64,000 nt of DNA, taken from contig CAMCEE010000002.1 in NCBI GenBank assembly GCA_945873815.1, forward strand, positions 103,781-167,780. Reading direction: 5' to 3'. Of this stretch, positions 22,448 through 64,000 are shown piece by piece (the stretch's first letter is position 1; each line of letters starts with the position of its first letter). The notes beneath the pieces are model-generated. The model saw nothing but the letters and a program-made list of their open reading frames with translations, was not told the DNA's origin and did not search any database. The position numbers were made by a program, and so were the translations under genes. This DNA is from an uncultured Bacillales bacterium. Lineage in GTDB: Bacteria > Bacillota_I > Bacilli_A > RFN20 > CAG-449.

Positions 22448-22480
22448 AAGAGAATGCCGGAGCATTCTCTTTATTTTATT
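22448..22480. terminator. Bidirectional terminator between the convergent GH31 and giant lipoprotein genes
   Basis: AGAGAATGC-cgga-GCATTCTCT, a 9-bp perfect stem, followed by TTATTTTATT. Confidence 0.7.
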
Positions 22481-44477: not shown

Positions 44478-46431
44478 GGGAATTTGACAGAATCTTCAAC
44501 TAAAAATACTTAATCCAGTGACTCTTATACTTAAGTATAATTTTCTCTTTTTTTATGTCAAATTTCTTATTTTTTATGTTGTATGAATTCGTATGATATG
44601 TTATAATATATTTGGTGATATATTTATGCGAGTTTCTTTAATGAAATGTGGTAATGACGATAAGCTCGTCTATATTGTTGACTCTACTCGTGTCGATAAT
44701 AAAATTAAAACTATTGTTGTTGAAAAATTAGGTAGACTTTCTGATTTAAAAAAGAATTATTTTGATCCTATTGCTTTTGCTAAAAAGAGAGCTCTTCAAC
44801 TCACAAACGAAAAAAAGGCTAATGAAGATAACTTTGATGTCAAATTTTTTACTCAACGTATTCTTTCTTCATCACAAACTTCTTTCAATGCAGGCTATCT
44901 GTTCTTGCAAAAGATCTATTACGGATTATCTTTAGATAAAATTTGTTTAGAAATTCAAGAAGATTCTAAAACTAAATATGATTTAAACAACATCTTAAAA
45001 GATTTAATCTTTTCTAGAATTCTTTATCCTTCTAGTAAACTTTCTACTTTTGATCTCGCTCATAATTTCTTAGAATCTCCTTCTTATGAATTACATGATG
45101 TTTATCGTGCTTTAGATTTATTATCTAATAACATTGACCTTATTCAAAAAGAAGTTTACTCAAGTTCTTTGAAGATTTGCAAACGGAATACTAATATACT
45201 TTATTATGACTGTACTAACTTCTTCTTTGAAATTGAACAACAAGATGGCTTTAGAAATTATGGTTTTTCTAAAGAACATCGCCCTAATCCTATTGTTCAA
45301 ATGGGTTTATTTATGGACGGAAATGGAATGCCTTTAGCTTTTAATATTAATCCTGGTAATACTAATGAACAAATTACTCCTAGACCAACTGAAGAAATGA
45401 TTGAAAAAGAATTCGGCTTATCTAAGTTTATCTATTGTTCTGATGCTGGTTTAGGATCATATAACAACAAATGGTTTAATCAATTAAAAGATCGCTCATT
45501 TATTGTTACTCAATCCTTAAAAAAGATTAAATCTTATCTTCTTAATTGGGTATTAGATGATAATAATTGGAATATACCTAAAGATAAATGCGAATTCAAT
45601 CAAATTATTTTTAAATCTCGCCCAATCAATGAAAAAGGAACTATCATTATTGATGACTTAAATTCTCAAACTGAAATTAATCAAAGATTAATTGTCTCTT
45701 TTTCTCCAAGGTATGCAAAATATCAAAAAGAAATTAGGGATGCCCAAATTGATAGAGCCAAAAAACTAATTGCTCATCCAAGTAAATTTGATAAATACTC
45801 ATCCCAAGACTGCAAAAGATTCATTAAAAATATTGCTTTTGATTCTAAAACAGCTGAAGTAATCGCTAGAGATTTATCTTTGGATTTAGACGCGATTAAC
45901 GAAGAAGCTATGTTTGATGGTTATTATGCTTTAGTAACTAATTTAGATGGTTCAGATGAGGAAATCATTAAGATTAATCACAATCGTTGGGAAATTGAAG
46001 AATCATTTAGAATCATGAAAACAGATTTTAAATCTAGACCAGTTTATTTACAGAATGAAAATAGAATTCGTTCTCATTTCTTAACTTGTTATCTTGCTTT
46101 ACTTATCTATCGTATTCTTGAACAAAAGATTAATGATGATTCACATCATTACACTACTACTCAAATTATTTCTTCATTAAAGGAAATGAACTTATTCAAA
46201 TTAAATGATGTTGGTTTTGCTTCTAATTATCAAGCCTCAGAATTATTAGATTCTCTTTGTAAATCTTTTGATTTAGATCTTAATAAACAAGCATATAGAT
46301 CAAATAAAATAAAAAAATTAATTAAATTAAGTAAAAAACCATACAACATTTTCTAAGCACTAAAAAATGGTAAAATTCCCGATTTATCGGAGTTTCTACC
46401 ATTTTTATTTACTTTAATTGTCAAAGATGAG
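44478..46431 (+). mobile_element. IS1634-family insertion sequence (about 1.95 kb) with a single transposase ORF
   Basis: It is bounded by the 131-bp direct repeats. Ends GGGAATTTGACAG… and …CTTTGACAATT(rc) form imperfect terminal inverted repeats. Long, variable TSDs are the hallmark of IS1634-family elements. Confidence 0.75.
44593..46356 (+). CDS. IS1634-family (IS4-superfamily DDE) transposase
   Basis: 587 aa. The N-terminal region …MKCGNDDKLVYIVDSTRV… and the overall length match IS1634/ISMac-type transposases. Confidence 0.75.
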   Translation: MICYNIFGDIFMRVSLMKCGNDDKLVYIVDSTRVDNKIKTIVVEKLGRLSDLKKNYFDPIAFAKKRALQLTNEKKANEDNFDVKFFTQRILSSSQTSFNAGYLFLQKIYYGLSLDKICLEIQEDSKTKYDLNNILKDLIFSRILYPSSKLSTFDLAHNFLESPSYELHDVYRALDLLSNNIDLIQKEVYSSSLKICKRNTNILYYDCTNFFFEIEQQDGFRNYGFSKEHRPNPIVQMGLFMDGNGMPLAFNINPGNTNEQITPRPTEEMIEKEFGLSKFIYCSDAGLGSYNNKWFNQLKDRSFIVTQSLKKIKSYLLNWVLDDNNWNIPKDKCEFNQIIFKSRPINEKGTIIIDDLNSQTEINQRLIVSFSPRYAKYQKEIRDAQIDRAKKLIAHPSKFDKYSSQDCKRFIKNIAFDSKTAEVIARDLSLDLDAINEEAMFDGYYALVTNLDGSDEEIIKINHNRWEIEESFRIMKTDFKSRPVYLQNENRIRSHFLTCYLALLIYRILEQKINDDSHHYTTTQIISSLKEMNLFKLNDVGFASNYQASELLDSLCKSFDLDLNKQAYRSNKIKKLIKLSKKPYNIF

Positions 46432-50558: not shown

Positions 50559-52835
50559 ATGGAGAATTTAACAAAAAAAGAAAAAATATCAACCTTTGTA
50601 AATTATGGAATAATTTTCATAATGATAATAACGTTCTTTTTCGGATTATTTGGATTAAATGATGTCAGTAAGAAAAAAAGTAAAGATGAACTGATATCAT
50701 TAAATGAGAATTGGAGCATTAATGGTGATATTGTTGATATATCAGATTATAAAGTTTTATTAGGTAAAGATGAAAAAATAACTCTATCTTATGTGACAGA
50801 TGAAACGTTATATCGAAATAATAATTTACTTTTTTATTGCGATATGATGGGAATAGATGTTTTTGTTAATGATAAAAAGATTTATACGGTTAATCGAAGT
50901 GAAATAAGCGGTTGCGTATTAGTTAGATCGATGGTTGTAGTTGATCTAATCAATGTGTGTATTGGTGATACTGTATCTATTGATATTTATAATATTAGGG
51001 GAGATTCTCTTGAATATGAATTACCTACAATTAAGGCAGGAACTGAGAATTCAATTAAGAATAGTATATTTTTGGAAGAAAGTATAACGATTTTTTCTTT
51101 TATTCTTTCTATCGCTGTATTAATAACTTTTATTACATATATTTTCTATGCCTCGAAAACAAGGAAAACGATGGAGAAAAGATTTGTCTCTTTTGGTTTA
51201 TTCATATTAGTTTCAACGATATGGTTATTTTTTGATTCGAATCTAGCTAATACACTTCCTTTAAATATTGAAACTACATCTCTTATATCATTATATTTAT
51301 TTAAACTTCTTCCTCTTGGATTGTTATTTTTTGTGTTACGTTCATTCAAGAGCGATCGTGTCATTCTAATTAGAATAATGATTATCTTATGTTACATCAA
51401 TATTGCAACTGGTACGTTATTATCCTTTTTAAGAGTGATTCCACTTAATAATCTAGTTTTCATTGATCAAACATTATTTGGATTATCGGTTATGGCAACA
51501 TTGTTTTATGTAAATGTTTACGCGAGAAAATATAGAAATGAGCCACAACAAAAAATCACATTTATTGCTTTCTTTGTTTTATTAGCATTCTATATTTCAT
51601 CCTTAGTATGTTATTACATTTATGAATCGAAGATATATCACGATATAATGTCTATTGCAATCGTCATATTCTACGTATTTATCTTCTTGATTGTCATTTA
51701 TTTTTCTAGAGTGGATTCTAAGTTAAAGAAGAAAGTTGCAGAAGAAAGAGAATATTATCGTTTAATGTCATATAAAGATGAATTAACTGGGCTTAATAAT
51801 ATTCGTGCATACGAAGAAGATTTGAAATCCTTTGAGACCCAAAAGACAGAAAATACTATATTAGTGGTGATCGATATTAATGATGTTAAACGAATAAATG
51901 ATACATATGGACATGGAGCAGGTAATGTACTTATCACTCAATGTGCACAATGCATTACAAAAACATTTAGTAAATATGGAAGGTGCTACCGCATACGAGG
52001 AAATGAATTTGCCTTAATTATTGATTATCCTTCCTTCGATATTGAAAAGAGATTATCGTATTTTAATGAATTAATAAAGGCTTCAAACGGAGATAGAATA
52101 TATAAACTATCAGTTGCAGTAGGCTATGCAAAATATAAAGATAATGAAGGAAAGATGCTTGAGGATCTTCGTTTCCAAGCTGATCTAGATATGTATAAAG
52201 ATAAGAATAGAAAGAGATTAGTTGAGATCAAATCTAAAAATGAAATATGGCAAAAGATGATTGATACTATCATTTCTATATTTGAAGTTAAGGACCCATA
52301 TACGGCTCAACATTCAAATAGAGTAAGTTACCTTTCTAAATTTATTGCTGAATCAATGGGGTTTACCGAATTAGCAATACAAGATATTTTCCTTGCAGGA
52401 AAGCTTCATGATATTGGGAAGATTGGAATTTCGGATAAGATTCTAACAAAGAAAGCAAGATTGAATGATGAGGAATTTGAAGAGATTAAGAAGCACACTA
52501 TTATTGGAGAAAAGATTATTAAATCGTCTGGTGGCATGGACAAAATTGCAAATATTATTCGTCACCATCACGAAAAATATAATGGTACTGGATACCCAGA
52601 CAGAATATCAAAGGATGATATTCCAATTGAATCTAGAATACTTGCAATTGCAGATTCAATCGATGCAATGACTTCCGATCGTTGCTACAGAAAAGCATTA
52701 ACTTACGATGAATGTAAGGAAGAGATTACAAGAAATTTAGGTGTTCAATACGATCCAATTGTTGGAAAATATACTCTTGAAAATTGGGATGAATTAGTCT
52801 CAATTCATAAAGAATTAAGAAATCAATTAGATTGA
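50559..52835 (+). CDS. Membrane sensor: 7TMR-DISM-like extracellular and 7TM N-terminus, degenerate GGDEF domain (RGNEF), and HD-GYP c-di-GMP phosphodiesterase domain
   Basis: N-terminal signal/TM, a periplasmic domain, then 7 TM helices. The GGDEF-fold region carries RIRGNEFALII instead of GG(D/E)EF. The HD-GYP motifs are HDIGK and HHEKYNGTGYPD. Confidence 0.75.
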   Translation: MENLTKKEKISTFVNYGIIFIMIITFFFGLFGLNDVSKKKSKDELISLNENWSINGDIVDISDYKVLLGKDEKITLSYVTDETLYRNNNLLFYCDMMGIDVFVNDKKIYTVNRSEISGCVLVRSMVVVDLINVCIGDTVSIDIYNIRGDSLEYELPTIKAGTENSIKNSIFLEESITIFSFILSIAVLITFITYIFYASKTRKTMEKRFVSFGLFILVSTIWLFFDSNLANTLPLNIETTSLISLYLFKLLPLGLLFFVLRSFKSDRVILIRIMIILCYINIATGTLLSFLRVIPLNNLVFIDQTLFGLSVMATLFYVNVYARKYRNEPQQKITFIAFFVLLAFYISSLVCYYIYESKIYHDIMSIAIVIFYVFIFLIVIYFSRVDSKLKKKVAEEREYYRLMSYKDELTGLNNIRAYEEDLKSFETQKTENTILVVIDINDVKRINDTYGHGAGNVLITQCAQCITKTFSKYGRCYRIRGNEFALIIDYPSFDIEKRLSYFNELIKASNGDRIYKLSVAVGYAKYKDNEGKMLEDLRFQADLDMYKDKNRKRLVEIKSKNEIWQKMIDTIISIFEVKDPYTAQHSNRVSYLSKFIAESMGFTELAIQDIFLAGKLHDIGKIGISDKILTKKARLNDEEFEEIKKHTIIGEKIIKSSGGMDKIANIIRHHHEKYNGTGYPDRISKDDIPIESRILAIADSIDAMTSDRCYRKALTYDECKEEITRNLGVQYDPIVGKYTLENWDELVSIHKELRNQLD

Positions 52836-52984: not shown

Positions 52985-53075
52985 TATTTGTATTTGGGGG
53001 CAAAATTGTAGCAATACAATGACGCAAAACTAGAGGGTCCTACAGGGATAGCCAGTTGCAATATGTAACTATTTA
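52985..53075 (+). ncRNA. Candidate c-di-GMP-I (GEMM) riboswitch
   Basis: GGGGGCAAAA, then the hairpin ATTGTA-GCAA-TACAAT (GNRA tetraloop), then GACGCAAAAC, then TAGAGGGTCC, then GGGATAGCCAGTTGC. This parallels the GEMM-I core GGCAAACC / GNRA-capped P1b / GACGCAAAGC / GGGUC. It lies in the 5' leader of the 53251 operon. Confidence 0.5.
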
Positions 53076-53113
53076 TTAGAACGTATGTTGCGATTGGATT
53101 AGAAAATTGAAAC

Positions 53114-53150
53114 AAACCGCTCTAATAAAAGATGAGCGGTTTTTATTTTC
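53114..53150 (+). terminator. Intrinsic terminator (probable riboswitch expression platform)
   Basis: CCGCTC-taataaaagatga-GAGCGG followed by TTTTTATTTT. It lies about 40 nt after the aptamer and 100 nt before the first CDS. Confidence 0.6.
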
Positions 53151-53250: not shown

Positions 53251-53988
53251 ATGAAGTCATCTGTAGTTCGTAAATATCACCGCCTCGCACTTAGCAAGAA
53301 ATTCACCACTAGGGCATTAGCAATTCTTGGTACTCTCATTCTTCTTATCGCAGCACTAACAATCTATGGCTCACAAACTGGAAACTTCGTCGTATCGGTA
53401 AAAAATATTAACCGCAATGAAAGTATTGCTCTATCGATAGAAGAAGATAAAAGTAATGAAGTCTCTAGATTGATTGCAAATCCATTAAAGGATTGCATAG
53501 ATGGGTGTTACGATGACATTCCTGAAGACATTGATGAAGGATTAGGCTCCAAAAACGACAAATCCGGAAGGTATTTGGCAATGTCATTCTATTTAATTAA
53601 TAATGGAATGACGACAAGAAACGTCGCTATGGATTTCAGAATTACTCAAGTTACGAAAAGGATCGATACAATACTTCGAGTAATGATTATCCAAGATGGT
53701 GAAAAAACATTCTTCTCAAAAGCCAGAGAGGATGTAGATAACGGAGACGGGTTAGGGGAACCAATATGGGGCTTTGATTACTCCGGACGGTATGTTATTA
53801 CAAATGCAAATGCATTCGATGATGAATACATCGTTCACAAGAAAATCAATGATTTCGAAAAAGGCTCTTCAATAAAATTCACGATAGTGATGTGGCTTGA
53901 TGGTTTAGATGATCAAAACCCAGATGGAAATAGAGATATGTTGGGTGGAGCACTAAAAACCGAATTGAATTTTAGCATTATAGGCTAA
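53251..53988 (+). CDS. Hypothetical N-terminally membrane-anchored or secreted protein (TapA-like position)
   Basis: RBS GAGGAGGGGG. The N-terminal hydrophobic segment is ALAILGTLILLIAALTIYGS. It is the first gene downstream of the riboswitch candidate. Confidence 0.4.
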   Translation: MKSSVVRKYHRLALSKKFTTRALAILGTLILLIAALTIYGSQTGNFVVSVKNINRNESIALSIEEDKSNEVSRLIANPLKDCIDGCYDDIPEDIDEGLGSKNDKSGRYLAMSFYLINNGMTTRNVAMDFRITQVTKRIDTILRVMIIQDGEKTFFSKAREDVDNGDGLGEPIWGFDYSGRYVITNANAFDDEYIVHKKINDFEKGSSIKFTIVMWLDGLDDQNPDGNRDMLGGALKTELNFSIIG

Positions 53989-54015: not shown

Positions 54016-54846
54016 ATGAAAAAGACAAGTTCAAAATTATTCTTAGCTGCAGCAGCATTAGGTTTAGCAGCAGCATCAACAGTAGGATCAACATACGCAT
54101 GGTTCACTGTTAATGGATCAGCACAAGCTTCAGGATTATCAATGGAAGTTGCAAGTGGATCAGGTATTATGATAAAAAAACATGCTGATTCAACTTATTT
54201 AGCAGATATGAATATTTCAACTGATTTTGCGGGAAAGAAATGGGAACCATGTACACCAACTGCTCCAAATGATTTATCTAGCTTTAAGAAGCTTAATATT
54301 CAAGATACAATCAGTAGTAACGGATATACATATGATAATGCAGTAAACACTGATAATAAACTTTATTTCTATACACTTGATTTAGATGTTAGAGTGTCTG
54401 CAGGCTTTAATTTTAAAGTATATGTTTCTGATATTAGTGATACTTCTAGTCAAGATGCTGATTGTAAAGCTGCAAATGTTGTAAGAGTAGGTTTTAGAAA
54501 ATATGATAAAACTGGAAACAACATTACTGAAACAACTGTTCATACTATTCAAACAAGAAATTATGGTTCTGAAAGTAATTATGCTTTAACTAAATTTAAG
54601 AGTGTATTTGGTATCAACGATCCTGCATTTACAGCAGAAACTTCTAATATAACTGATTGTATCAATGGTGAAGGTTTGAATTGTAAAACTGTAACTATAG
54701 CTGAAGGCGCAGAAGCTCTTAATGGATATGTTACACAAAGAGTTGAAATCGTTGTATGGTATGAAGGAAATGACTATCAATGTGCAGATGATATTTTATC
54801 AAAAAAAGTAACATTCAAATTGAACTTCGTACCAGTAGATGCATAA
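54016..54846 (+). CDS. Secreted TasA/camelysin-family-like protein with a SipW-cognate-class signal peptide
   Basis: Signal MKKTSSKLFLAAAALGLAAASTVGSTYAWFTVNG. The …G(S/T)(Y/F)A(W/Y)F… ending is characteristic of SipW substrates such as TasA and CalY. A SipW gene follows immediately. Confidence 0.5.
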   Translation: MKKTSSKLFLAAAALGLAAASTVGSTYAWFTVNGSAQASGLSMEVASGSGIMIKKHADSTYLADMNISTDFAGKKWEPCTPTAPNDLSSFKKLNIQDTISSNGYTYDNAVNTDNKLYFYTLDLDVRVSAGFNFKVYVSDISDTSSQDADCKAANVVRVGFRKYDKTGNNITETTVHTIQTRNYGSESNYALTKFKSVFGINDPAFTAETSNITDCINGEGLNCKTVTIAEGAEALNGYVTQRVEIVVWYEGNDYQCADDILSKKVTFKLNFVPVDA

Positions 54847-54978
54847 TTTATATATTTATTAGCAAAAACTATATATTTCATTTAATAAAATGGGTTAGTG
54901 GTGTTGCCACTTCCCTATTTTATTATTATAATAAACTTGGTATATTATAAATATTTATAATATCAAGCGAGGTACTTT

Positions 54979-55824
54979 ATGAAAAATAATGTTTTAAAGA
55001 AAGTGTTAAAGATTTCAGGTAACGTTCTTTTTGGAATCTTTTTAGTCTTTATTTTGTTTATTGCAATAACAAATATTAGAGCTAAATCAACCGATAATGT
55101 TCCAAATATTTTTGGATATGGGTACTTAAATGTATTATCCGATTCTATGGATGGAGATAAAGAGGACTCATTTAAAATTGGTGATTTGATTTTTGTTAAA
55201 CTAGTTAATAAAGAAGAAGCAGAAAATTTAAAAGTAGGAGATATCATTACCTATAGAACTATTATTGATGGTAAGGATATGACTATTTCCCATAGAATTA
55301 TTAGAATTGAACCTGACAATCCTTATAAATATGTTACGCAAGGTGATCATCCTTCTTCTAGTATGGCGGCAACTGATGCTGTTAAAGTAAATCAAGTTAT
55401 CGCAGTATATCAAGGTAAATGGGCTGGTGCTGGTTCAGTATTTGCTTGGTTCTCGAGTGGATTTGGATTTTTTCTTATTGTATGTGTACCTTGTATTTTA
55501 TTCTTGATTTTTGAAATCATTAATTTCGTAAAAGTATATATGGAATATAAAAACGAAAAACAACAAGTTGCTATGGCAGGTGGACCTGATAGCATTCAAA
55601 ATAAGATTAGAATGAGAAAGGCAGCATATGATGATCTTGTTAAAGAGGGTACTTTAACTAAAGAGCAAGCAGAGGCTGCACTTAATGAATATATTAAGAG
55701 TGTATCTGTAATAGAAAATGATACTACTTTAGAAGAAAAGCCTGTAGGTGCTAATGAATCATTAGAAGTATCTACTGAAGAAGCAAAGGAAAAAACTTCA
55801 GCAGTTGAAGAAAAAAATGAATAA
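54979..55824 (+). CDS. sipW: Signal peptidase I, archaeal-type SipW family (S26), with a C-terminal extension
   Basis: N-terminal TM. The catalytic block is NVLSDSMDGD…IGDLIFV…VGDIITY…ISHRIIRIE…TQGDH, matching SipW VLSxSME…VGDIITF…THRVVEI…TKGDNN. A second TM and a K/E-rich tail follow. Confidence 0.75.
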   Translation: MKNNVLKKVLKISGNVLFGIFLVFILFIAITNIRAKSTDNVPNIFGYGYLNVLSDSMDGDKEDSFKIGDLIFVKLVNKEEAENLKVGDIITYRTIIDGKDMTISHRIIRIEPDNPYKYVTQGDHPSSSMAATDAVKVNQVIAVYQGKWAGAGSVFAWFSSGFGFFLIVCVPCILFLIFEIINFVKVYMEYKNEKQQVAMAGGPDSIQNKIRMRKAAYDDLVKEGTLTKEQAEAALNEYIKSVSVIENDTTLEEKPVGANESLEVSTEEAKEKTSAVEEKNE

Positions 55825-55935: not shown

Positions 55936-57579
55936 TTGATGAACGAATTTGCTCAATATTATTTAGAATTCATGCGTCAAGTTTGGGAACAAATTTGTAA
56001 TTTCTTTGTTGGATTATATAATTGTTTCGCTGATATTCTTGTATTAAATCATATTGACAACATTAAATTGATTGGAAAATATGCAAATAGTTTTAATGTA
56101 TTATCTTGGATTTTATTTGTAATAATTGATGGTATTACATTAGCTTTTATTGTTTTATTATTTGTTAAGGCATTCCAATTATTGAGAAGATGGTTGAAAT
56201 TTAGAAAGAAAGAAGTTGAAAAAGAAGACTTACTATTTGAAATTGCTCAATTGAAAGAGGAAGTTAAACGTACAATTAAGGATAAAGAGAGAATTCTTAA
56301 TTTACAACTAGGTGAAGTAAGAGAACAAGGTTTATTAGTTCCTTCAAAAGGTATGATTACGCAAGAAGATGCAACGGGAGGCTACTATCCTAGTGATGAA
56401 TTAGTTAGCGTTTCTCCTCAAAGCTTTTTACCTAGTGATATGAAAAGTGAAAAAGAAGTCACTTCTTCTAGTGCAACAGAAGAAAAAGGAAGATTCTCAA
56501 AACTTGCGCTTGTTGATCAAAAATATGCGGAATCAGGTATTTACCATATTACAATGACAGAAGATGATTTAGTTGGATTACCTGAAATTATTAATAGATT
56601 CGTTAATTATGCGGCTAGTCAACATCATTTGTATTATACAAAACGTACAATTTCTAAATTTGTCGCAGGTTTAGCTACTTCAAAGATTATTATTCTTGAA
56701 GGTATATCTGGTACTGGTAAAACATCATTGCCATATGCTTTTTCAAGATTTATGAAGAACCAAGCTCAAATCGTTTCTGTACAACCTTCTTGGAGAGATA
56801 GAACAGAAATTCTAGGTTATTTAAATGAATTTACAAAGAAATTTAATGAAACTGACTTCTTAAAGGCATTATATGAAGTTTCTTATCGTGAAGATGTTAA
56901 CTTAATCGTCCTTGATGAGTTGAACTTAGCTCGTATTGAATATTATTTTGCTGAATTCTTATCTATTATGGAAATGCCTGATAAGAGTGAATGGAAAATT
57001 GACCTTGTTCCAACACAAGAGCCTAATGATCCACATCATTTAACTGAAGGAAAATTATTGATTCCACAAAACTTATGGTATATTGGAACAGCAAACAAGG
57101 ATGACTCAACTTTTACTATTACTGATAAGGTTTACGATAGAGCTGTTACTCTTTATTTAAATGAAAGAGCAAAATATTTTGATGCTCCATTTACTGAATC
57201 TATCAATTTATCATATGATTATTTACAAAAACTCTTTGATGAAGCTAGTGAATTACATACGATTTCATTAAAGAATTTAGATAATATCGAAAAATTAGAT
57301 GAATTTGTCCAAGAAAATTTCAAGATTGCTTTTGGTAACCGTATTATGAAACAAATTAAGACATTCGTTCCTGTATACGTTGCTTGTGGTAATTCTGAAT
57401 TAGATGGATTGGATTACATGATTTGTACAAAGATATTTAAGAAATTTGAGGCATTAAACTTGCCTTTCTTGAAGAAGGAATTAGAGGGTTTAATCGCATT
57501 AATTCAAAAATTATACGGAAAAGAATCGTTTAAAGAATCAATTGCATATTTACGTGATTTATTAAAGATGGCTTCGTAG
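55936..57579 (+). CDS. Membrane-anchored McrB-like AAA+ (AAA_5) NTPase with an N-terminal TM helix and coiled coil
   Basis: TM helix SWILFVIIDGITLAFIVLLFV. Walker A LEGISGTGKTSL. The Walker B and sensor region is LIVLDELNLARIEYYFAEFLSIME. The motif WYIGTANKDDSTFTITDKVYDRA matches McrB blocks DEINRA…GEL.YLLEYR and IGTMNTADRS…RR. Confidence 0.6.
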   Translation: MMNEFAQYYLEFMRQVWEQICNFFVGLYNCFADILVLNHIDNIKLIGKYANSFNVLSWILFVIIDGITLAFIVLLFVKAFQLLRRWLKFRKKEVEKEDLLFEIAQLKEEVKRTIKDKERILNLQLGEVREQGLLVPSKGMITQEDATGGYYPSDELVSVSPQSFLPSDMKSEKEVTSSSATEEKGRFSKLALVDQKYAESGIYHITMTEDDLVGLPEIINRFVNYAASQHHLYYTKRTISKFVAGLATSKIIILEGISGTGKTSLPYAFSRFMKNQAQIVSVQPSWRDRTEILGYLNEFTKKFNETDFLKALYEVSYREDVNLIVLDELNLARIEYYFAEFLSIMEMPDKSEWKIDLVPTQEPNDPHHLTEGKLLIPQNLWYIGTANKDDSTFTITDKVYDRAVTLYLNERAKYFDAPFTESINLSYDYLQKLFDEASELHTISLKNLDNIEKLDEFVQENFKIAFGNRIMKQIKTFVPVYVACGNSELDGLDYMICTKIFKKFEALNLPFLKKELEGLIALIQKLYGKESFKESIAYLRDLLKMAS

Positions 57580-57599: not shown

Positions 57600-59333
57600 A
57601 TGGCAGATATAAATTTTGAAAAAAAATACTATTCATCAATACTAGGATCTATCAATAGAAATGATAGTCACAACTTTTATAATGAAATGCTCAATGCAAT
57701 TAAAGGCGGCAATATGGAAGTATTCCTTACTCGTAGCCGTCAACAATTGTCATTTGATTCGACATGGATTCATCAAATTAGTGACTATTTAAGATACGTA
57801 GAGAATATCGTTAGAAATCCTCGTATCTACATGTTAGCAGTTGAAGAAGTTACTCCAATTCAAAGAGCAAAGAAGATTAATGCTAGATCAATTCAACATT
57901 TATCTTCTCACGTTCAAAATGTTCAAGAACTTAGAAAAGATGGAACTATTGTTCCTTCAAAAGTATTATCGACAACTTTTGAAGATACTTTTGCAATATA
58001 TGAAAACAGATTTGTTATGACATTAATTAACAAATTAGCTGCTTTCGTTGAAGTTAGATATGATTCCATTTTAGAAAGTATTAAATCATATCAAATGGAT
58101 AAGATTGTTGCAAAATCATCTTTTGTTTGGCGAAATTATTCAATCGATGCAAAGATTGAATTAAATGTTAAAGAAGAAATTTTAGATGAAGTAAGTAAGA
58201 AAAATAAGGAATTATTGGATGATATTATCGTTATTAGAAATTATGTTAGAGGATTTATGACTTCAAGTTTCTATCAAACAATGAAAGAGAGAACTCGTCC
58301 TGTTACTCCTCCTATTTTAAGAACTAATATCATTACAAAATCTGTTGATTATAACTCATGTTTGAAATTGTGGCTATTCTTAGATTCTTACCGTCAACTA
58401 GGTGTTGATTTAGAAGTTATGGATAAAGAATTACCATTTGATGATAAGTTCATTGATGAAGTTAGCGATATGCTATTTATGAACTATTCTTTGTTTGTAT
58501 CTAACCAAGAGGATAGAAAAGAGAATTATGAACTTCTTCCATTTAAAAAGAGAAAAGAAAAGAAACCTAAAGTTAATAAATTATTAGTAGCACATGATGA
58601 AGAAGAGGGATTGAAGGATGATAACATTAATGAACCTACAATTTCAGAATACTTCTATCAAAGAGTAAAGAAAAACTATAAGACAGAATTTACAGAACAA
58701 ATAAATTCAGGTATTTCTTATAATAAAGCCTTCTTAAGCGTATATAAGAAAATGCTTAAAATTGAAAATGGTATTCAAGATGAAATAGTTGAAAGTATGC
58801 AAAAGCGTATTCCTGTCACTAATTCTATTAAAGAAAAAAGAAGAGCAAAACATAAGCAATATAAAAAAATGAAGGGGATGTATGAAAACCTAATCGCAGC
58901 TAAAGAATTGGATTTAGAAAAGGCTCGACAAAAACTAGAGAAATTGAATGAAACTCTTGAAAAATATGCTAAAGAAGAAAAGGAATATCAATTAGAACTT
59001 CGTAGACAAAAAAGAAAGCAACAAAAAGAGGAACTCGAGCTTCAAAATAAAAACGATGAAGAAAAGAAGAAGGAAGAAAAATTAAAGAAGAAAAAAGAAT
59101 CCATTAAAAAGATTCCACTTCCAGTAAGCGACAAACCACTTGAAATTGATCTTCCTGAAAAAGAAGATGCTCCAGTAGTTGCTGAACCAAATGATGAAGA
59201 AATCAAACCTTCTGTTGGAATAAATTCTCGTACTGCTCGTCTTCTAGAATATCTTCAAAAGGCTCGTCAAGCATCAAGAAGTAAAGAAGTTAAGGTCGAA
59301 AGCAGAAATATAGACCACAATGAGGAAAAGTAA
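57600..59333 (+). CDS. Large hypothetical protein (577 aa). The N-terminal globular domain is a possible McrC-like partner. The C-terminus is an extremely K/E-rich coiled coil.
   Basis: It starts 21 nt after the ATPase gene. The C-terminal 250 aa are low-complexity and basic (…KKKEEKLKKKKESIKK…). No PD-(D/E)xK motif could be recognised confidently. Confidence 0.4.
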   Translation: MADINFEKKYYSSILGSINRNDSHNFYNEMLNAIKGGNMEVFLTRSRQQLSFDSTWIHQISDYLRYVENIVRNPRIYMLAVEEVTPIQRAKKINARSIQHLSSHVQNVQELRKDGTIVPSKVLSTTFEDTFAIYENRFVMTLINKLAAFVEVRYDSILESIKSYQMDKIVAKSSFVWRNYSIDAKIELNVKEEILDEVSKKNKELLDDIIVIRNYVRGFMTSSFYQTMKERTRPVTPPILRTNIITKSVDYNSCLKLWLFLDSYRQLGVDLEVMDKELPFDDKFIDEVSDMLFMNYSLFVSNQEDRKENYELLPFKKRKEKKPKVNKLLVAHDEEEGLKDDNINEPTISEYFYQRVKKNYKTEFTEQINSGISYNKAFLSVYKKMLKIENGIQDEIVESMQKRIPVTNSIKEKRRAKHKQYKKMKGMYENLIAAKELDLEKARQKLEKLNETLEKYAKEEKEYQLELRRQKRKQQKEELELQNKNDEEKKKEEKLKKKKESIKKIPLPVSDKPLEIDLPEKEDAPVVAEPNDEEIKPSVGINSRTARLLEYLQKARQASRSKEVKVESRNIDHNEEK

Positions 59334-59334
59334 T

Positions 59335-59961
59335 ATGAAATCGAAGATTAATTGGAAAAAGATTCTAAAGATTTCAGGCAATGTATTATTAGGTATATTA
59401 ATTGCATTCATTCTCTATCTTGTCGTTGAGATTGTTATTGCATTTATTATAAAAAAACCACCATGCATCTTCAATCATTACATATTCGTAGTACTAACTA
59501 ATTCAATGGAAGATACGATTATGGTGGGAGAAGTAGTATTTGTCAAAAGAGCAGCATTCTCAAATGTAAATATTGGCGATATCATATCTTTTATTGATAT
59601 TAATCCATCGGATGCGGTTTATGGACAATATATTACTCATAGAGTAGTTGGAATTACTCAAAATGGTTTACTTATCACACAAGGTGATAATAATATCGTA
59701 CAAGATTCTTACCGTGTTAGTGAGAATAATTTTATCGGAATTATGGATTATCATTCCAAGTTCCTAGGTAGTATTGTTACATTTTTTAGTAACAATTCCA
59801 ATATCGTATTTATTATAGTTTCTATCGTTCTAATAACAGTTATCTGCCTTGAAGCTAAAAACTTTCTTATTTTAAAGGAAAAAGCTAAACAAGAGGATGA
59901 AAAGGAAAAACTAAAAGAACAAATCATGCAAGAGATTAATAAAGGAGAGAAAGAAGAATAG
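59335..59961 (+). CDS. Second SipW-family signal peptidase I paralog
   Basis: MKSKINWKKILKISGNVLLGILIAF is near-identical in pattern to the N-terminus of the 54979 protein. The catalytic block is VVLTNSMEDTIMVGEVVFV…IGDIISF…ITHRVVGIT…TQGDNN. An RBS GAGGAAAAG is 5 nt upstream. The ATG at 59335 is preferred over 59320. Confidence 0.7.
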   Translation: MKSKINWKKILKISGNVLLGILIAFILYLVVEIVIAFIIKKPPCIFNHYIFVVLTNSMEDTIMVGEVVFVKRAAFSNVNIGDIISFIDINPSDAVYGQYITHRVVGITQNGLLITQGDNNIVQDSYRVSENNFIGIMDYHSKFLGSIVTFFSNNSNIVFIIVSIVLITVICLEAKNFLILKEKAKQEDEKEKLKEQIMQEINKGEKEE

Positions 59962-62586
59962 ATGAAAAGAGTAAATATCCTTATTTACACAATTATATCT
60001 TTTGTTATAGTGGGCGTCCTTTCTGTCGCTTATGTTTTCTACTTGCAAACTTTAGTATTAAGCAAAACTAAATCAAATATTTCAGTTAATGTGACTGAGA
60101 CTTCATCTTATATTGATAGCTATGCGGAAACTCATTTTAAGATATTTGAAAAAGAAGTTAGTGATAATAATATAGGTAATAAGGAATTCATAAATGGATT
60201 TTTAAGAAAATATGGATCTTATGGCTTTGATAAGGTGGGTTATTATAATGATAATACTAATGTCTATTATTATGATTCACTTGTTTCTAAAAAAGAAGGA
60301 AAGTTCGAATTTAAAACATTAAGTAAAGATAAAACATTAAATCAAACGATTTCTCTTATTGAAGAAAGATTTCTTTTTGATAATAATTCTAGAACTGTAA
60401 TGCTCCTATATTGCGTTAATGATGAGGGAAGAAACTTCTTTGCTTTACAAAAATTCTCTTCTTTTATCGATATGCTTGTCAATCCTTATACTAATAATAG
60501 TAATAGTGATACTGTTAAATATTTTGTTTCTACAAGTGATGGATTAATTACTTCTTCTAATTCAGAAGAAAAGAATTTATTAACTATGAATCATTTTTTT
60601 AAGGAAATGACTACAAGGGAAGAATTCAATAATAATATGATTAAGGAGAATTCTATCGTATATGAATTCGACGATTATTCATCTTCATATGTTTCGGGTC
60701 ATAGTATTCTTTCAAAATACAATTCTAATGATTTGTATCTCTATGGCTTGATTCCAACCACATACGTTAATAGCATTAGTAATACCGTGATTATTTCAAC
60801 CTCAATTCTTTTAGCTACTTTAGCATTAATTTTTATCGGATTTGGTATTTATTTGTATGCTTCATATACAATGGCAAGAAAAAAATATATGGTTGAAGGA
60901 ACATTAATTAGAGATGATAGCCACTATTCCATCCTTCTTAATAAACAAGGTAAAATCGTATCTAATAATGCAAAATTTGCTTCATTAGGATTGAAAAAAC
61001 GTGGAATATTTTCATCTTGCATTGATGTTTTAGAATTAAATGGTGGAGATGAAGAATTCATTGATTTATTAGAAAATAGAGGAGATTTTACAATAAAAAT
61101 CAATGATTTAGAGCAAAAAGATAGAACGATTAAATTTATCGTTGTTAAAAAGAAATATGGATATCAATTATTAGGATATGATATTTCCGATGCAGTAATT
61201 GTCCCTTATCATTCTGAAAGAAAAGAAGAAAAGAAAAATGCATTTATACCAAATATCGATGAACTTCATACTTCGATTGATTTGAATTCATTATATAAAG
61301 ATGATTTATTCGACGCTTTGAATAAGAAAGCATTATACATTAGAATTGAAAAAATAATTGAAGAGAAAGCAAGGAATAATCAAAACACCTATTTATTCTA
61401 TTTTGGTCTATCAAATGAAGAGGAAATTGTTCGTACTTATGGTAACGCTATTGAAGAATTAGTAAATGCAAGTATGTTAGATGCGATTACAAAAGAATTT
61501 AATGGAATCGAAGTATACAATATTGATGACCATCATTTCGCTTTCTTTTATGAATTACATGATACTTTCCATTCATTGACTAAGATGATGGAAGATATTG
61601 GTACACGTTTAAAGAAACCAGCAAAGATTTTATCTAACGAAATTGAAATTGAAATTGATTTCGGTATTTATCATTTCGCTTCATTTAATCTTGAAGGAGT
61701 ATCTCCAAAGAAATTGCTTGAAAGAGCTGCTCTTGCGTTTAGACAAGCAATAACTCTTTCGAATAAAACATATAAGATTTACGATAGTAACCTTGAAATT
61801 GCATTCGAACTTGATGATATTATTGCACGTGATATTAGAAATGGTCTTGATAATAATGAATTCGTCACTTATTTCCAACCAAACTATTCTTTAAAAGATG
61901 ATAGAGTATCTGGATTTGAGTGTTTACTTAGATGGAATAATGATAAATATCGTTATGACTCACCATTTAAATATATTCAAGTCGCAGAAAAAGTTGGTCT
62001 TATTAATGAGATTGGTTATTTTACATTAACGGAATCTTTCAAACTTATCAAAGAATTAAATGATCCATACTTGCATATATCTGTTAACGTTTCTCCGGCA
62101 CAATTCTTACAAACTGGTTTCATTTCAAAATTAGTTAGTATGTATACTGAATATGATGTTCCTTATTCATCGATTTGTATAGAAATCACAGAAACTTTCT
62201 TAATTCAATCTATGAATGAAGTAATTGAAAAACTTAAATACTTGCGTTCATTTGGAATTAAAGTTTATCTTGATGATTTTGGTACAGGATATTCTTCACT
62301 ACTATATCTTGCAGAACTTCCAGTTGATGTTATTAAGATTGATAAAGCATTCATCACTCCGCTTAAAACGAGTAAGAGCTCAAGAACTATTGTTTCAGAA
62401 CTTATTCAAATTGCAACTGAATTGAATATGGAGGTAGTTGCAGAAGGTGTTGAAGATGATTATCAAGTCAATTTCCTCGAAAAGAAAAAGTGTATGAATA
62501 TTCAAGGATATTATTTCTCAAAACCTGTTCCTAAAGAACAAGTAAAAGATACTTTAGATATTAAGAGAAAGAAGAAGAAAGAATAG
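59962..62586 (+). CDS. Membrane protein with a large extracytoplasmic domain, a degenerate GGDEF-like region and an intact EAL c-di-GMP phosphodiesterase domain
   Basis: Two TM helices bracket a roughly 250-aa outside domain. EAL motifs present: YFQPNY, ECLLRW, NVSP, DDFGTGYSSL, KIDKAF and EGVEDDYQ. The start codon abuts the SipW2 stop. Confidence 0.75.
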   Translation: MKRVNILIYTIISFVIVGVLSVAYVFYLQTLVLSKTKSNISVNVTETSSYIDSYAETHFKIFEKEVSDNNIGNKEFINGFLRKYGSYGFDKVGYYNDNTNVYYYDSLVSKKEGKFEFKTLSKDKTLNQTISLIEERFLFDNNSRTVMLLYCVNDEGRNFFALQKFSSFIDMLVNPYTNNSNSDTVKYFVSTSDGLITSSNSEEKNLLTMNHFFKEMTTREEFNNNMIKENSIVYEFDDYSSSYVSGHSILSKYNSNDLYLYGLIPTTYVNSISNTVIISTSILLATLALIFIGFGIYLYASYTMARKKYMVEGTLIRDDSHYSILLNKQGKIVSNNAKFASLGLKKRGIFSSCIDVLELNGGDEEFIDLLENRGDFTIKINDLEQKDRTIKFIVVKKKYGYQLLGYDISDAVIVPYHSERKEEKKNAFIPNIDELHTSIDLNSLYKDDLFDALNKKALYIRIEKIIEEKARNNQNTYLFYFGLSNEEEIVRTYGNAIEELVNASMLDAITKEFNGIEVYNIDDHHFAFFYELHDTFHSLTKMMEDIGTRLKKPAKILSNEIEIEIDFGIYHFASFNLEGVSPKKLLERAALAFRQAITLSNKTYKIYDSNLEIAFELDDIIARDIRNGLDNNEFVTYFQPNYSLKDDRVSGFECLLRWNNDKYRYDSPFKYIQVAEKVGLINEIGYFTLTESFKLIKELNDPYLHISVNVSPAQFLQTGFISKLVSMYTEYDVPYSSICIEITETFLIQSMNEVIEKLKYLRSFGIKVYLDDFGTGYSSLLYLAELPVDVIKIDKAFITPLKTSKSSRTIVSELIQIATELNMEVVAEGVEDDYQVNFLEKKKCMNIQGYYFSKPVPKEQVKDTLDIKRKKKKE

Positions 62587-62597
62587 GAGGTAAAGAT

Positions 62598-64000
62598 ATG
62601 TTTATAATGTTAGAAAATCAAACTAGTAATAACGCAGGTAATATTGTTTTTACAGTTCTTATCGTTTTAGTTATTCTTGCATTATCAGGATTACTCGTAT
62701 GGTCCATTATTAGAGAAAGAAAAAGAGTGCAAGAAGAGAAAAATGCTCAAAAGATTAATCTTGGACTAATGACAAGAAGAGAAGCAACTCAACATTTAAA
62801 TGATTTCATTAAAACTTATCGTTTATCAAATGAAGCTACTTGCTTTATTTTCGAACTTAGTAACGTAACAGAATTAATCGATTCATTCGGAAAGAAAAAC
62901 GAGATTTTATTAAGGGAAACTATGATGCAAAATGTTGTTAATTCACTGCCTAAAAATACCATTTTAGCAGAATATAAACCTGAAAATGATTCATATATGA
63001 TTATTCTAAGAGGAATGATTCCTCGTGAACGTATTTTGTCCTTTGCAGATACACTTGCCGATGCGATTGAAAAACCTATTGCAGTTCCTCATTCAGATAT
63101 AGAAACTTCTTATAGTTGTTTTATGGGTATCTCCTTTTATCCTAACCAAGCTATTACTTCTAATGATTTAATTTCCAAAGCAGATATTGCTTTATATATG
63201 AATCACAAGAATCAAGATAAGAGATTTGTTACCTATTCTCCTCAATACAGTCAAGTGGAAGCAGAGAATGTTGCTTATTATAATGAAATCAAGAATGCAA
63301 TTAAGAATAAGGAATTTGCTTTGTATTATCAACCTATTATCGATCATAAAACTAATGAATTAGTTGGTATGGAATCGTTAATTAGATGGGAACATCCTAC
63401 ATTAGGAATATTACCTCCTAAAAAATTCTTAACTATATTAGAAAATTCTGGTGATATCCTTTGGGTTGGTAGTTGGGGAATTAGTACTATTGCATCATTT
63501 TATCATGAACAACGCGAATTATTTAAGAATGATTTTTTCTTTTCAATCAACTTATCAATTAAACAATTATTGAATAATAATATCGTCAGTGAAATGTGTG
63601 AAACATTAAAAAAATATTCAGTTCCAACAACTGCAATATGTATTGAAATTGAAGAATATGCATTATATGAGAAATATGCATCGATTAAAGAAACACTTCA
63701 AGAATTCCAAAAGAAAGGATTTAAAGTTGCGGTTGATCAATTTGGATTAGATTCAAATAATATCATTAAATTAGAAAAGCAAGATTTCTTTATGCTAAAG
63801 ATTTCAAGTCAAGAATACCTTGAAGAAAAAGAATCATTTATCCATCAAAAAATGGCAGAAATGCTTTCGGAAACTTGTGTCGCGAAAGGAACAAAAATTT
63901 GCGCATTAAAAGTTGAAAATAGAGGTGATATGGATTATCTGGAAAGCAAAGGTATTTCTTGGGTTCAAGGGTATTGCATTTCAGAACCAATGGATAAAGA
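62598..64000 (+). CDS. TM-anchored GGDEF-like/EAL-like protein with degenerate catalytic motifs. It is 3'-partial and continues beyond the window.
   Basis: The ORF opens at the ATG at 62598 after the RBS AGGAGG. There is no stop before the window end, so it is absent from the ORF track. The EAL-fold motifs are ALYYQPII, ESLIRWEH and VAVDQFGLDSNN, where DQFGLDSNN replaces DDFGTGYSS. This suggests a non-catalytic receptor. Confidence 0.55.
   Translation, partial: MFIMLENQTSNNAGNIVFTVLIVLVILALSGLLVWSIIRERKRVQEEKNAQKINLGLMTRREATQHLNDFIKTYRLSNEATCFIFELSNVTELIDSFGKKNEILLRETMMQNVVNSLPKNTILAEYKPENDSYMIILRGMIPRERILSFADTLADAIEKPIAVPHSDIETSYSCFMGISFYPNQAITSNDLISKADIALYMNHKNQDKRFVTYSPQYSQVEAENVAYYNEIKNAIKNKEFALYYQPIIDHKTNELVGMESLIRWEHPTLGILPPKKFLTILENSGDILWVGSWGISTIASFYHEQRELFKNDFFFSINLSIKQLLNNNIVSEMCETLKKYSVPTTAICIEIEEYALYEKYASIKETLQEFQKKGFKVAVDQFGLDSNNIIKLEKQDFFMLKISSQEYLEEKESFIHQKMAEMLSETCVAKGTKICALKVENRGDMDYLESKGISWVQGYCISEPMDK

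Follow-up and report, generated by a model that had tools for sequence, protein, structure and literature searches.

The window analysed here is the whole 64,000-nucleotide (nt) stretch of contig CAMCEE010000002.1 (assembly GCA_945873815.1, an uncultured Bacillales bacterium), and it ends in a tandem of two genes, ORF1 and ORF2 (ORF, open reading frame), whose products EAL1 and EAL2 are membrane proteins with a GGDEF-EAL core. Judging by their active-site sequences, it is very likely that ORF1 is active and ORF2 inactive as phosphodiesterases of cyclic di-GMP (c-di-GMP). ORF1 and ORF2 are an ancient, co-inherited pair, and we are confident that this pair is associated with a neighbouring module of six genes (g1-g6) that includes genes for secreted proteins and SipW-type signal peptidases. 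The protein types themselves are known, but the conserved pairing of an active with an inactive EAL protein, and the module to which it belongs, appear to be undescribed. The features of the pair are as follows (positions are those of the window; aa, amino acids).

59962..62586, + strand: ORF1 (EAL1), 874 aa, predicted sensor c-di-GMP phosphodiesterase
60028..60786, + strand: EAL1 aa 23-275, extracytoplasmic domain, probably dCache-like (hydropathy scan, AlphaFold2, Foldseek)
60874..61221, + strand: EAL1 aa 305-420, cytoplasmic linker domain with a GKIxxxNxxF motif conserved in the orthologue alignment
61294..61821, + strand: EAL1 aa 445-620, degenerate GGDEF domain, IDDHH replacing GG[DE]EF (profile search and Pfam)
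61828..62526, + strand: EAL1 aa 623-855, intact EAL domain (Pfam PF00563, E=1.2e-65)
62586..62590, + strand: GGAGG ribosome-binding site of ORF2, 7 nt before its ATG, overlapping the last base of the ORF1 stop codon
62598..64000, + strand: ORF2 (EAL2), 484 aa in full and 467 aa in the window, membrane-anchored, with degenerate GGDEF and degenerate EAL domains
62643..62699, + strand: EAL2 aa 16-34, sole N-terminal membrane segment (hydropathy scan)
62763..63215, + strand: EAL2 aa 56-206, degenerate GGDEF domain, ENDSY replacing GGDEF (Pfam GGDEF, E=5e-6)
63282..63989, + strand: EAL2 aa 229-464, EAL fold (Pfam EAL, E=4.8e-48)

Catalytic residues of the two EAL domains

An intact EAL active site is defined by RocR residues E175, N233, E265, E268, D295, K316 and E352, and c-di-GMP is recognised by Q161, R179, D296 and D318 (PMC2952852). 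The metal ligands include D295, D296 and E352 (Asp302/Asp303 in BlrP1; PMC7911125, PMC3989770). Because the intact site and its ligands are laid out in this literature, we use RocR numbering throughout. Positions were mapped via HMMER/phmmer alignments to MorA and PA0575, plus the spacings K316+36 and Q372-20, with the following result.

RocR Q161: ORF1 Q639, ORF2 Q245
RocR E175: ORF1 E653, ORF2 E259
RocR R179: ORF1 R657, ORF2 R263
RocR N233: ORF1 N709, ORF2 N318
RocR E265: ORF1 E741, ORF2 E350
RocR E268: ORF1 E744, ORF2 E353
RocR D295: ORF1 D771, ORF2 D380
RocR D296: ORF1 D772, ORF2 Q381 (lost)
RocR K316: ORF1 K792, ORF2 K401
RocR D318: ORF1 D794, ORF2 S403 (lost)
RocR E352: ORF1 E828, ORF2 L437 (lost)
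RocR Q372: ORF1 Q848, ORF2 Q457
Loop 6: ORF1 DFGTGYSS, ORF2 QFGLDSNN

ORF1 has all seven residues of the intact site, the recognition residues and a canonical loop 6 (DFGTGYSS). Its motifs read ECLLRW (aa 653-658), NVSP (709), EITE (741-744), DDFGTGYSS (771-779), KIDK (792-795), EGVE (828-831) and QGY (848). We therefore predict a ligand-regulated c-di-GMP phosphodiesterase whose degenerate GGDEF domain is regulatory. ORF2, whose EAL domain also retains E440, lacks one of the seven (E352). Because it has lost two metal-2 or general-base ligands (D296 and E352), D318 and the canonical loop 6, ORF2 should not hydrolyse c-di-GMP and would be a membrane-anchored pseudo-phosphodiesterase.

These differences hold across relatives. 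A GTDB scan of one genome per species, made with an alignment of ORF2 homologues, gave 505 relatives, and the best 80 of these were fetched with their flanks and joined by seven metagenome contigs; 84 non-redundant loci were counted. The sampled loci come from Acholeplasmatales, Anaeroplasmataceae and uncultured Bacilli, and cultured carriers include Anaeroplasma bactoclasticum ATCC 27112, Paracholeplasma vituli and Peloplasma aerotolerans.

All 12 mapped positions are intact in every ORF1 orthologue (72/72). Among the 83 ORF2 orthologues, the equivalents of E175, R179, N233, E265, D295 and K316 are kept without exception, and a wider set of nine (Q161, E175, R179, N233, E265, E268, D295, K316 and Q372) stands at about 100%. 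At the D296 position, 65 have G, 11 have H, six have D and one has Q, and the predominance of Gly marks the loss of this Asp as ancient and fixed. In all 83, loop 6 has D or E instead of its second Gly. The other two losses are more restricted: the E352 equivalent is kept in 68/83 and is L throughout the window clade, and the D318 equivalent is kept in 46/83; the window clade (16 close ORF2 orthologues) has additionally lost both.

A preliminary description of this DNA had proposed one intact and one degenerate EAL domain, and both the residue mapping and the family-wide conservation agree with it. Its statements that ORF1 keeps every EAL catalytic block and that the GGDEF-fold region before it lacks GG(D/E)EF hold (the motifs, the Pfam match and the residue mapping for the former; IDDHH, with the fold confirmed by profile search, for the latter), as does its reading of DQFGLDSNN in place of DDFGTGYSS in ORF2 (aa 380-388). 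It had also reported that other metal-binding residues of ORF2 are altered, which is right for one residue (E352, now L437) and not for the equivalents of E175, N233, E265, E268, D295 and K316, which are kept. The alignment to RocR that it had suggested finds the metal ligands of ORF2 not all intact, the D296 and E352 equivalents being lost. Its other suggested check, whether the domains have the EAL fold at all, is settled by the Pfam matches in both proteins and by the structure matches of ORF2 described below. ORF2 was missing from the ORF list used at the time, as that description had said, because the listing omits ORFs that cross the window's end. Finally, the same architecture had been ascribed to both proteins: this is true of their GGDEF-EAL halves, but the N-termini differ, with two transmembrane segments, an outer domain and a linker domain in ORF1 and a lone anchor in ORF2.

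Conservation of the pair

The synteny census searched the window proteins against six-frame ORFs of the sampled loci. An ORF1 orthologue lies immediately 5' of the ORF2 orthologue in 76/84 non-redundant loci, and most of the eight loci without an adjacent pair end at a contig end. Two loci are possible exceptions to the pairing, having an ORF2 orthologue without an ORF1 orthologue upstream despite the presence of upstream sequence (L069 9989-11428 and L050 2089-3705). Stop and start codons overlap in 34 of the 76 pairs and lie within 15 nt of each other in most of the others, and this suggests that the two genes are often translationally coupled.

With an identity of 23%, ORF1 and ORF2 are old paralogues, and we rejected a recent tandem duplication for the same reason. 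Compared pairwise across one set of 70 genomes, the EAL domains of ORF1 have a mean identity of 0.535 and those of ORF2 one of 0.472, and the two are correlated (r=0.92). The ORF2 EAL domain is thus nearly as conserved as that of ORF1, and ORF2 is therefore, as far as conservation can indicate, a selected pseudo-enzyme under strong constraint rather than a decaying copy. This, together with the pocket residues kept at about 100%, suggests that a functional pocket is being maintained.

Domain architecture

The ORF1 ATG directly abuts the stop codon of the upstream signal-peptidase gene g6 (59320-59961), and a relative with 99% identity (P0121) is also 874 aa long; a look-up of the exact ORF1 sequence gave no match. 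A hydropathy scan places membrane segments at aa 4-22 and 276-294, which enclose an outer domain of about 250 aa. The AlphaFold2 model of this domain has a mean predicted local distance difference test (pLDDT) of 57.8 (70-87 at aa 40-170) and shows a long helix and then two alpha/beta modules. The 50 best Foldseek matches of this model in the PDB are mostly dCache ligand-binding domains (TlpA, PctA, TlpC, Mlp24, Tlp3), with E down to 1.8e-6 and a target template-modelling (TM) score up to 0.71 for this low-confidence model. Sequence-profile searches of PDB and Pfam gave no family match for the outer domain. The N-terminal model is weak because the homologue search yielded only four close orthologues, so it was built from a four-sequence alignment. 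The linker region has an alpha/beta pattern in the model (pLDDT below 50) and is possibly PAS-like.

The GGDEF fold that follows is better supported by profiles than by the single sequence. A profile of aa 445-620 built from 16 orthologues matches 54 solved GGDEF structures (best E=2e-21), and 16/16 orthologues match Pfam GGDEF in this region. The window copy by itself reaches 17 bits, and the whole ORF1 protein has no Pfam GGDEF match at E<=0.01. NCBIfam full-length GGDEF-EAL models align to ORF1 from about aa 430, and in a phmmer search aa 445-861 match the crystal structure of the MorA GGDEF-EAL region, with further matches to RocR and TBD1265. None of 65 ORF1 orthologues has GG(D/E)EF at the motif position.

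The ORF2 reading frame continues without a stop up to the window's final base, and its remaining 17 codons are known from a database protein, P0001, which is 100% identical over 467 aa. Outside the membrane, its N-terminus has only about 15 residues. AlphaFold2 puts a helix at aa 13-51 in a model with pLDDT 83.8. The hydropathy and topology scan shows no sensor domain, and Pfam/NCBIfam domain searches found no HAMP domain. In distant ORF2 relatives, the GGDEF position reads xNDEF. Foldseek matches the model to GGDEF-EAL tandems (PA0575 at E=2e-33, MorA, DosP, and LapD at E=3.7e-22), and the fit of the EAL half to TBD1265, MorA and RocR has target TM scores of 0.84-0.89 (0.84-0.87 for TBD1265).

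The neighbouring secretion cluster

Between a gene for an HD-GYP protein and the EAL pair lie the six genes of the cluster.

50559..52835, + strand: HD-GYP protein with a degenerate GGDEF (RGNEF), HD at aa 617 and GYP at aa 678
53251-53988, + strand: g1, secreted protein
54016-54846, + strand: g2, secreted protein with a SipW-type signal peptide (…GSTYAWFT)
54979..55824, + strand: g3, SipW-type (archaeal-type) signal peptidase I with a C-terminal extension (TIGR02228, 59.9 bits, cutoff 51.85)
55936..57579, + strand: g4, membrane-anchored McrB-like AAA+ protein, the most conserved gene of the module
57600..59333, + strand: g5, g4 partner protein with a Lys/Glu-rich C-terminal tail (orthologues carry DUF2357)
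59320..59961, + strand: g6, second SipW-type signal peptidase I (TIGR02228, 74.3 bits, cutoff 51.85)

This cluster adjoins the EAL pair in 68/84 loci, again across Acholeplasmatales, Anaeroplasmataceae and uncultured Bacilli. In most lineages the pair comes before the cluster, whereas in the window clade the cluster comes first.

The small secreted proteins encoded by g1 and g2 form two related families with a common, nearly invariant C-terminal motif, WLEGxDxDC, and loci hold one to four g2 paralogues. Neither g1 nor g2 matches a Pfam family. TIGR04088 is matched by 5/38 g2 orthologues, and for TasA/camelysin (Peptidase_M73) two of the 38 reach E of about 0.04, with no match for g1 or g2 themselves. 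The sole PDB relatives of g4 are McrB proteins, and a g5 profile found no match in the PDB. The g4 protein also matches the PADLOC model PDC-M26A (E=9e-39), which could be read as a defence island comprising g4 and g5; we did not adopt this reading because both genes are in strict synteny with the secretion genes.

The protein at 50559 has an N-terminal outer segment and about seven membrane helices, and its HD and GYP motifs are intact. Weaker HD-GYP homologues are found 5' of the EAL pair in L023, L026, L075, L080 and L086. The GG(D/E)EF cyclase motif is absent from all three of the window's proteins discussed here (IDDHH in ORF1, ENDSY in ORF2 and RGNEF in the 50559 protein).

c-di-GMP-I riboswitches

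A riboswitch precedes the cluster in the window.

52989..53063, + strand: c-di-GMP-I riboswitch aptamer (RF01051), 5' of the cluster (Rfam 51.4 bits, gathering score 35)
53052..53149, + strand: expression platform, with a hairpin of 53052-53065 and 53082-53097 that overlaps the aptamer 3' strand
53114-53122 with 53134-53142, + strand: stem of a separate intrinsic terminator, with an 11-nt loop and a U-run to 53149

Rfam found c-di-GMP-I aptamers in 12/16 test loci, and a covariance model (R1) built from them was then searched in 85 sources, giving 76 aptamers, all on the gene strand. The window aptamer scores 70.3 bits with this model, the second-lowest value in the set (the only lower one is a 3'-truncated match). 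Aptamers sit just 5' of g1 in 51 cases, 5' of ORF1 orthologues in seven (L055, L059, L066, L082, L084 and two in L087) and, in the window clade, 5' of g3 in five. At least 12 loci have tandem aptamers, every one of them overlapping a terminator of its own and located between EAL2 and g1 or 5' of EAL1 (L019, L022, L023, L024, L029, L031, L039, L042, L043, L061, which has three, L074 and L087). Extra aptamers occur inside or after the cluster at L039 6682, L056 4934, L064 8988 and L029 19063/19178.

In at least 57 of 75 aptamers, the aptamer 3' strand doubles as the 5' arm of a U-run-bearing terminator hairpin. The layout in these relatives is clearly that of an ON switch, in which ligand would prevent termination.

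The preliminary description had called the 50-64 kb region a c-di-GMP signalling hub on account of the 50559 protein, the riboswitch and the EAL proteins. The HD-GYP protein and the riboswitch are both confirmed, and the case has become stronger, since evolutionary conservation links the EAL pair to the riboswitch-controlled cluster that lies between.

Genomic setting

The c-di-GMP part of the window is AT-rich (G+C 27-36%), and the + strand carries nearly all long ORFs from 48 kb to the window's end. The contig that encodes P0001, L001, repeats the window gene order and extends it. Directly 3' of ORF2 (L001 9795-16550) it has a gene for a 970-aa HATPase_c/receiver/GGDEF protein, the sole candidate cyclase nearby, followed by spoIIAA-spoIIAB-sigF and then spoVAC/D/E. 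These sporulation genes identify the organism as a spore former, and the source is thus a spore-forming, low-G+C Firmicute.

Two other genes of the window may be mentioned. A 2181-aa ORF at 22476-29021 (- strand) combines a Listeria-Bacteroides repeat with an Endonuclease_1 domain at its C-terminus, and is probably a giant secreted or surface nuclease. A 587-aa DDE transposase (DDE_Tnp_1) is encoded at 44593-46356, a few kb 5' of the c-di-GMP region.

Working model and alternatives

The explanation we lean towards is that of paired active and pseudo-EAL proteins in a riboswitch-controlled secretion module, and the working model is as follows. When c-di-GMP is high, the riboswitch would open and the secreted-protein cluster would be made. 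The outer domain of ORF1 would sense a signal, upon which ORF1 would lower c-di-GMP and the switch would close. With the pair placed behind an ON riboswitch (some lineages) or downstream of the cluster (the window clade), the phosphodiesterase would be co-induced, giving negative feedback. ORF2, which keeps the nucleotide and metal-1 pocket, would bind c-di-GMP without cleaving it, and could then tune ORF1 through an EAL-EAL contact or gate the membrane machinery (g4, g5, SipW) post-translationally. A c-di-GMP receptor is a plausible role for ORF2, and we put the chance that it binds the nucleotide at about even. What the data show directly are the identities of the domains, the states of the residues and their conservation, the synteny, and where the aptamers lie and how they are laid out; heteromer formation and, in the window, the sign of regulation are both inferred.

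Several points weigh against this explanation. D296 and D318, two of the recognition residues (PMC2952852), are lost in the window's ORF2, so its binding may be weak or absent. ORF2 also has no obvious output domain, and the assignment of the ORF1 outer domain as dCache-like, probable as it is, depends on a low-confidence model. All statements on activity and binding are, moreover, drawn from sequence.

Further points concern the riboswitch. The hairpin competing with the window's aptamer lacks a U-run and the separate terminator lies 3' of it, so folding leaves the ON/OFF sign ambiguous; 53072-53083 could pair with 53123-53134 as an antiterminator of roughly the terminator's stability. Between g2 and g3 there is a terminator-like hairpin (54897-54911) and, overlapping it, an 11-of-12 sigma-70-like promoter site (54904-54932). 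Riboswitch control may therefore not reach the EAL pair here, and the pair may be read from its own promoter: the cluster may be split into a riboswitch-controlled g1-g2 and a g3-to-EAL2 unit with read-through. One Acholeplasmataceae subgroup also has the full module with no detectable c-di-GMP-I aptamer (L020, L021, L025, L027, L028, L032, L034, L035, L037, L038, L041, L044, L049 and L052). The gap before g1 is about 260-290 nt in this subgroup, and a search of L021 8150-8560 at permissive E found no Rfam family.

The strongest competing explanation makes ORF2 a pseudo-enzyme blind to c-di-GMP (YdiV/CsrD-like) that would serve as a structural or allosteric partner of ORF1, e.g., in a membrane heterodimer formed through the EAL dimer interface. 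It would account for the missing recognition residues in the window copy, for the rebuilding of loop 6, the loop of switching and dimerisation (PMC3032553), and for a protein with neither sensor nor output domain, and the strict adjacency and translational coupling with ORF1 suggest a 1:1 complex. However, nine pocket residues are kept at about 100% over 83 divergent sequences, which is hard to explain without a bound ligand or metal, and proven receptors such as LapD (KVL motif) retain fewer of these residues (PMC3032553). We therefore consider a blind ORF2 somewhat unlikely.

It is considerably less probable that ORF2 is still a phosphodiesterase, either with an altered or conditional metal site (one-metal, Mn-dependent) or activated by ORF1, such that the tandem would be two enzymes with different inputs. 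Across the wider family the E352 equivalent is mostly present (68/83) and D296 alone is missing; the invariant acidic residue of loop 6 (D/E, 83/83) could in principle replace the lost ligand; and six of the 83 still have DD. Yet the window copy has neither the D296 nor the E352 equivalent, E352 is among the seven required residues (PMC2952852), and Gly at the D296 position in 65/83 marks an ancient, fixed loss. Least credible of all is an incidental tandem, i.e., a recent duplication with one decaying copy or two unrelated EAL neighbours. Firmicute genomes do commonly hold many GGDEF/EAL genes, but the low mutual identity, the same ordered pair across three groups of bacteria and the purifying selection on ORF2 leave this idea hardly any room.

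A bolder version of the preferred explanation, with an active and a pseudo-EAL protein in one module, can also be framed. The EAL pair, riboswitches and cluster would together be a single self-contained, undescribed system that makes a c-di-GMP-controlled surface or matrix structure in the wall-less Acholeplasmatales and related Bacilli, with ORF2 as a dedicated post-translational receptor coupling c-di-GMP to the membrane ATPase or to ORF1. We regard this as unlikely in its full form. If true, the module would have c-di-GMP sensing at both the RNA and the protein level, plus its own degrading enzyme.

Comparison with known systems

For the cluster, the nearest comparison is with SipW fibre operons such as B. 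subtilis tapA-sipW-tasA and C. perfringens sipW-bsaABCRSD (PMC7395162). These likewise combine SipW peptidases with small secreted proteins bearing SipW-type signals, and the C. perfringens operon has a possible partial terminator after its structural genes, as does the window cluster. The window cluster differs in having no TasA-family protein, two SipW paralogues, and an McrB-like ATPase with a DUF2357 partner, and in its control: two-component regulation in the fibre operons versus c-di-GMP riboswitches and an EAL pair here. We know of no SipW/TasA system with an McrB-like ATPase/DUF2357 pair. In the open-access literature we found no paper that combines c-di-GMP riboswitch, SipW and TasA, though a prior description is possible; those papers that name SipW, c-di-GMP and riboswitch appeared, in the parts available, to be unrelated to this module.

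The riboswitches resemble known c-di-GMP-I (GEMM-I) examples in their RF01051 match, in the ON-type layout of most relatives and in their tandem arrangements. The window copy departs from these, with a competing hairpin that lacks a U-run and a second terminator after it.

ORF1 resembles class I EAL enzymes (RocR and MorA of P. aeruginosa, TBD1265 of T. denitrificans, PdeA/CC3396 of C. crescentus and DosP of E. coli) in its EAL fold, complete residues and canonical loop 6, and PdeA, like ORF1, has a non-cyclase GGDEF domain before the EAL domain. It differs from them by its probably dCache-like outer input and linker domain and by its genetic pairing with a pseudo-enzyme, and it is <30% identical to any solved protein. 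ORF1 is thus predicted to be a new member of the ordinary EAL phosphodiesterase class with a regulatory GGDEF domain.

Doubly degenerate GGDEF-EAL proteins serve as c-di-GMP receptors (PMC3032553), and the membrane-anchored ORF2 is like LapD and FimX in that both domains are degenerate and binding without hydrolysis is proposed. The ORF2 model matches the LapD GGDEF-EAL structures 3pjw (E=3.7e-22) and 6pwk. In contrast to these receptors, ORF2 lacks HAMP, periplasmic output, REC and PAS domains, no LapG/LapA-type partners were seen, and where LapD has a KVL motif, ORF2 keeps the EAL glutamate and far more of the pocket residues. Its sequence scores place it much nearer to active enzymes than to either LapD or FimX, and it belongs to neither family.

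Römling class 2/3 EAL domains (e.g., B. subtilis YkuI and E. coli YcgF/BluF, CsrD and YdiV) offer another comparison, and about one third of EAL domains are thought to be inactive. Like this group, ORF2 has kept the fold but has a degenerate loop 6 and has lost catalytic residues. It is set apart by a family-specific fixed pattern, D(G/H/Q)FG(L)D…, in which an acidic residue replaces the second Gly of loop 6, and by its coupling to an active paralogue.

In Acholeplasma, the only c-di-GMP item found in the open-access literature is that A. laidlawii encodes 14 GGDEF/EAL proteins (2008; PMC2408644). The module suggests that Acholeplasma-like bacteria have a surface biology under c-di-GMP control, a subject with next to no previous record in them, and the cultured carriers make it testable. 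Either an active EAL enzyme or a degenerate EAL protein alone would be ordinary. An obligate, ancient pairing is less so: in dozens of species it is the same partner that has lost the same catalytic residue (the D296 equivalent, in 77/83), and the pair is tied to a riboswitch-gated secretion operon, making it a compact natural system for a pseudo-phosphodiesterase that would work with its active paralogue.

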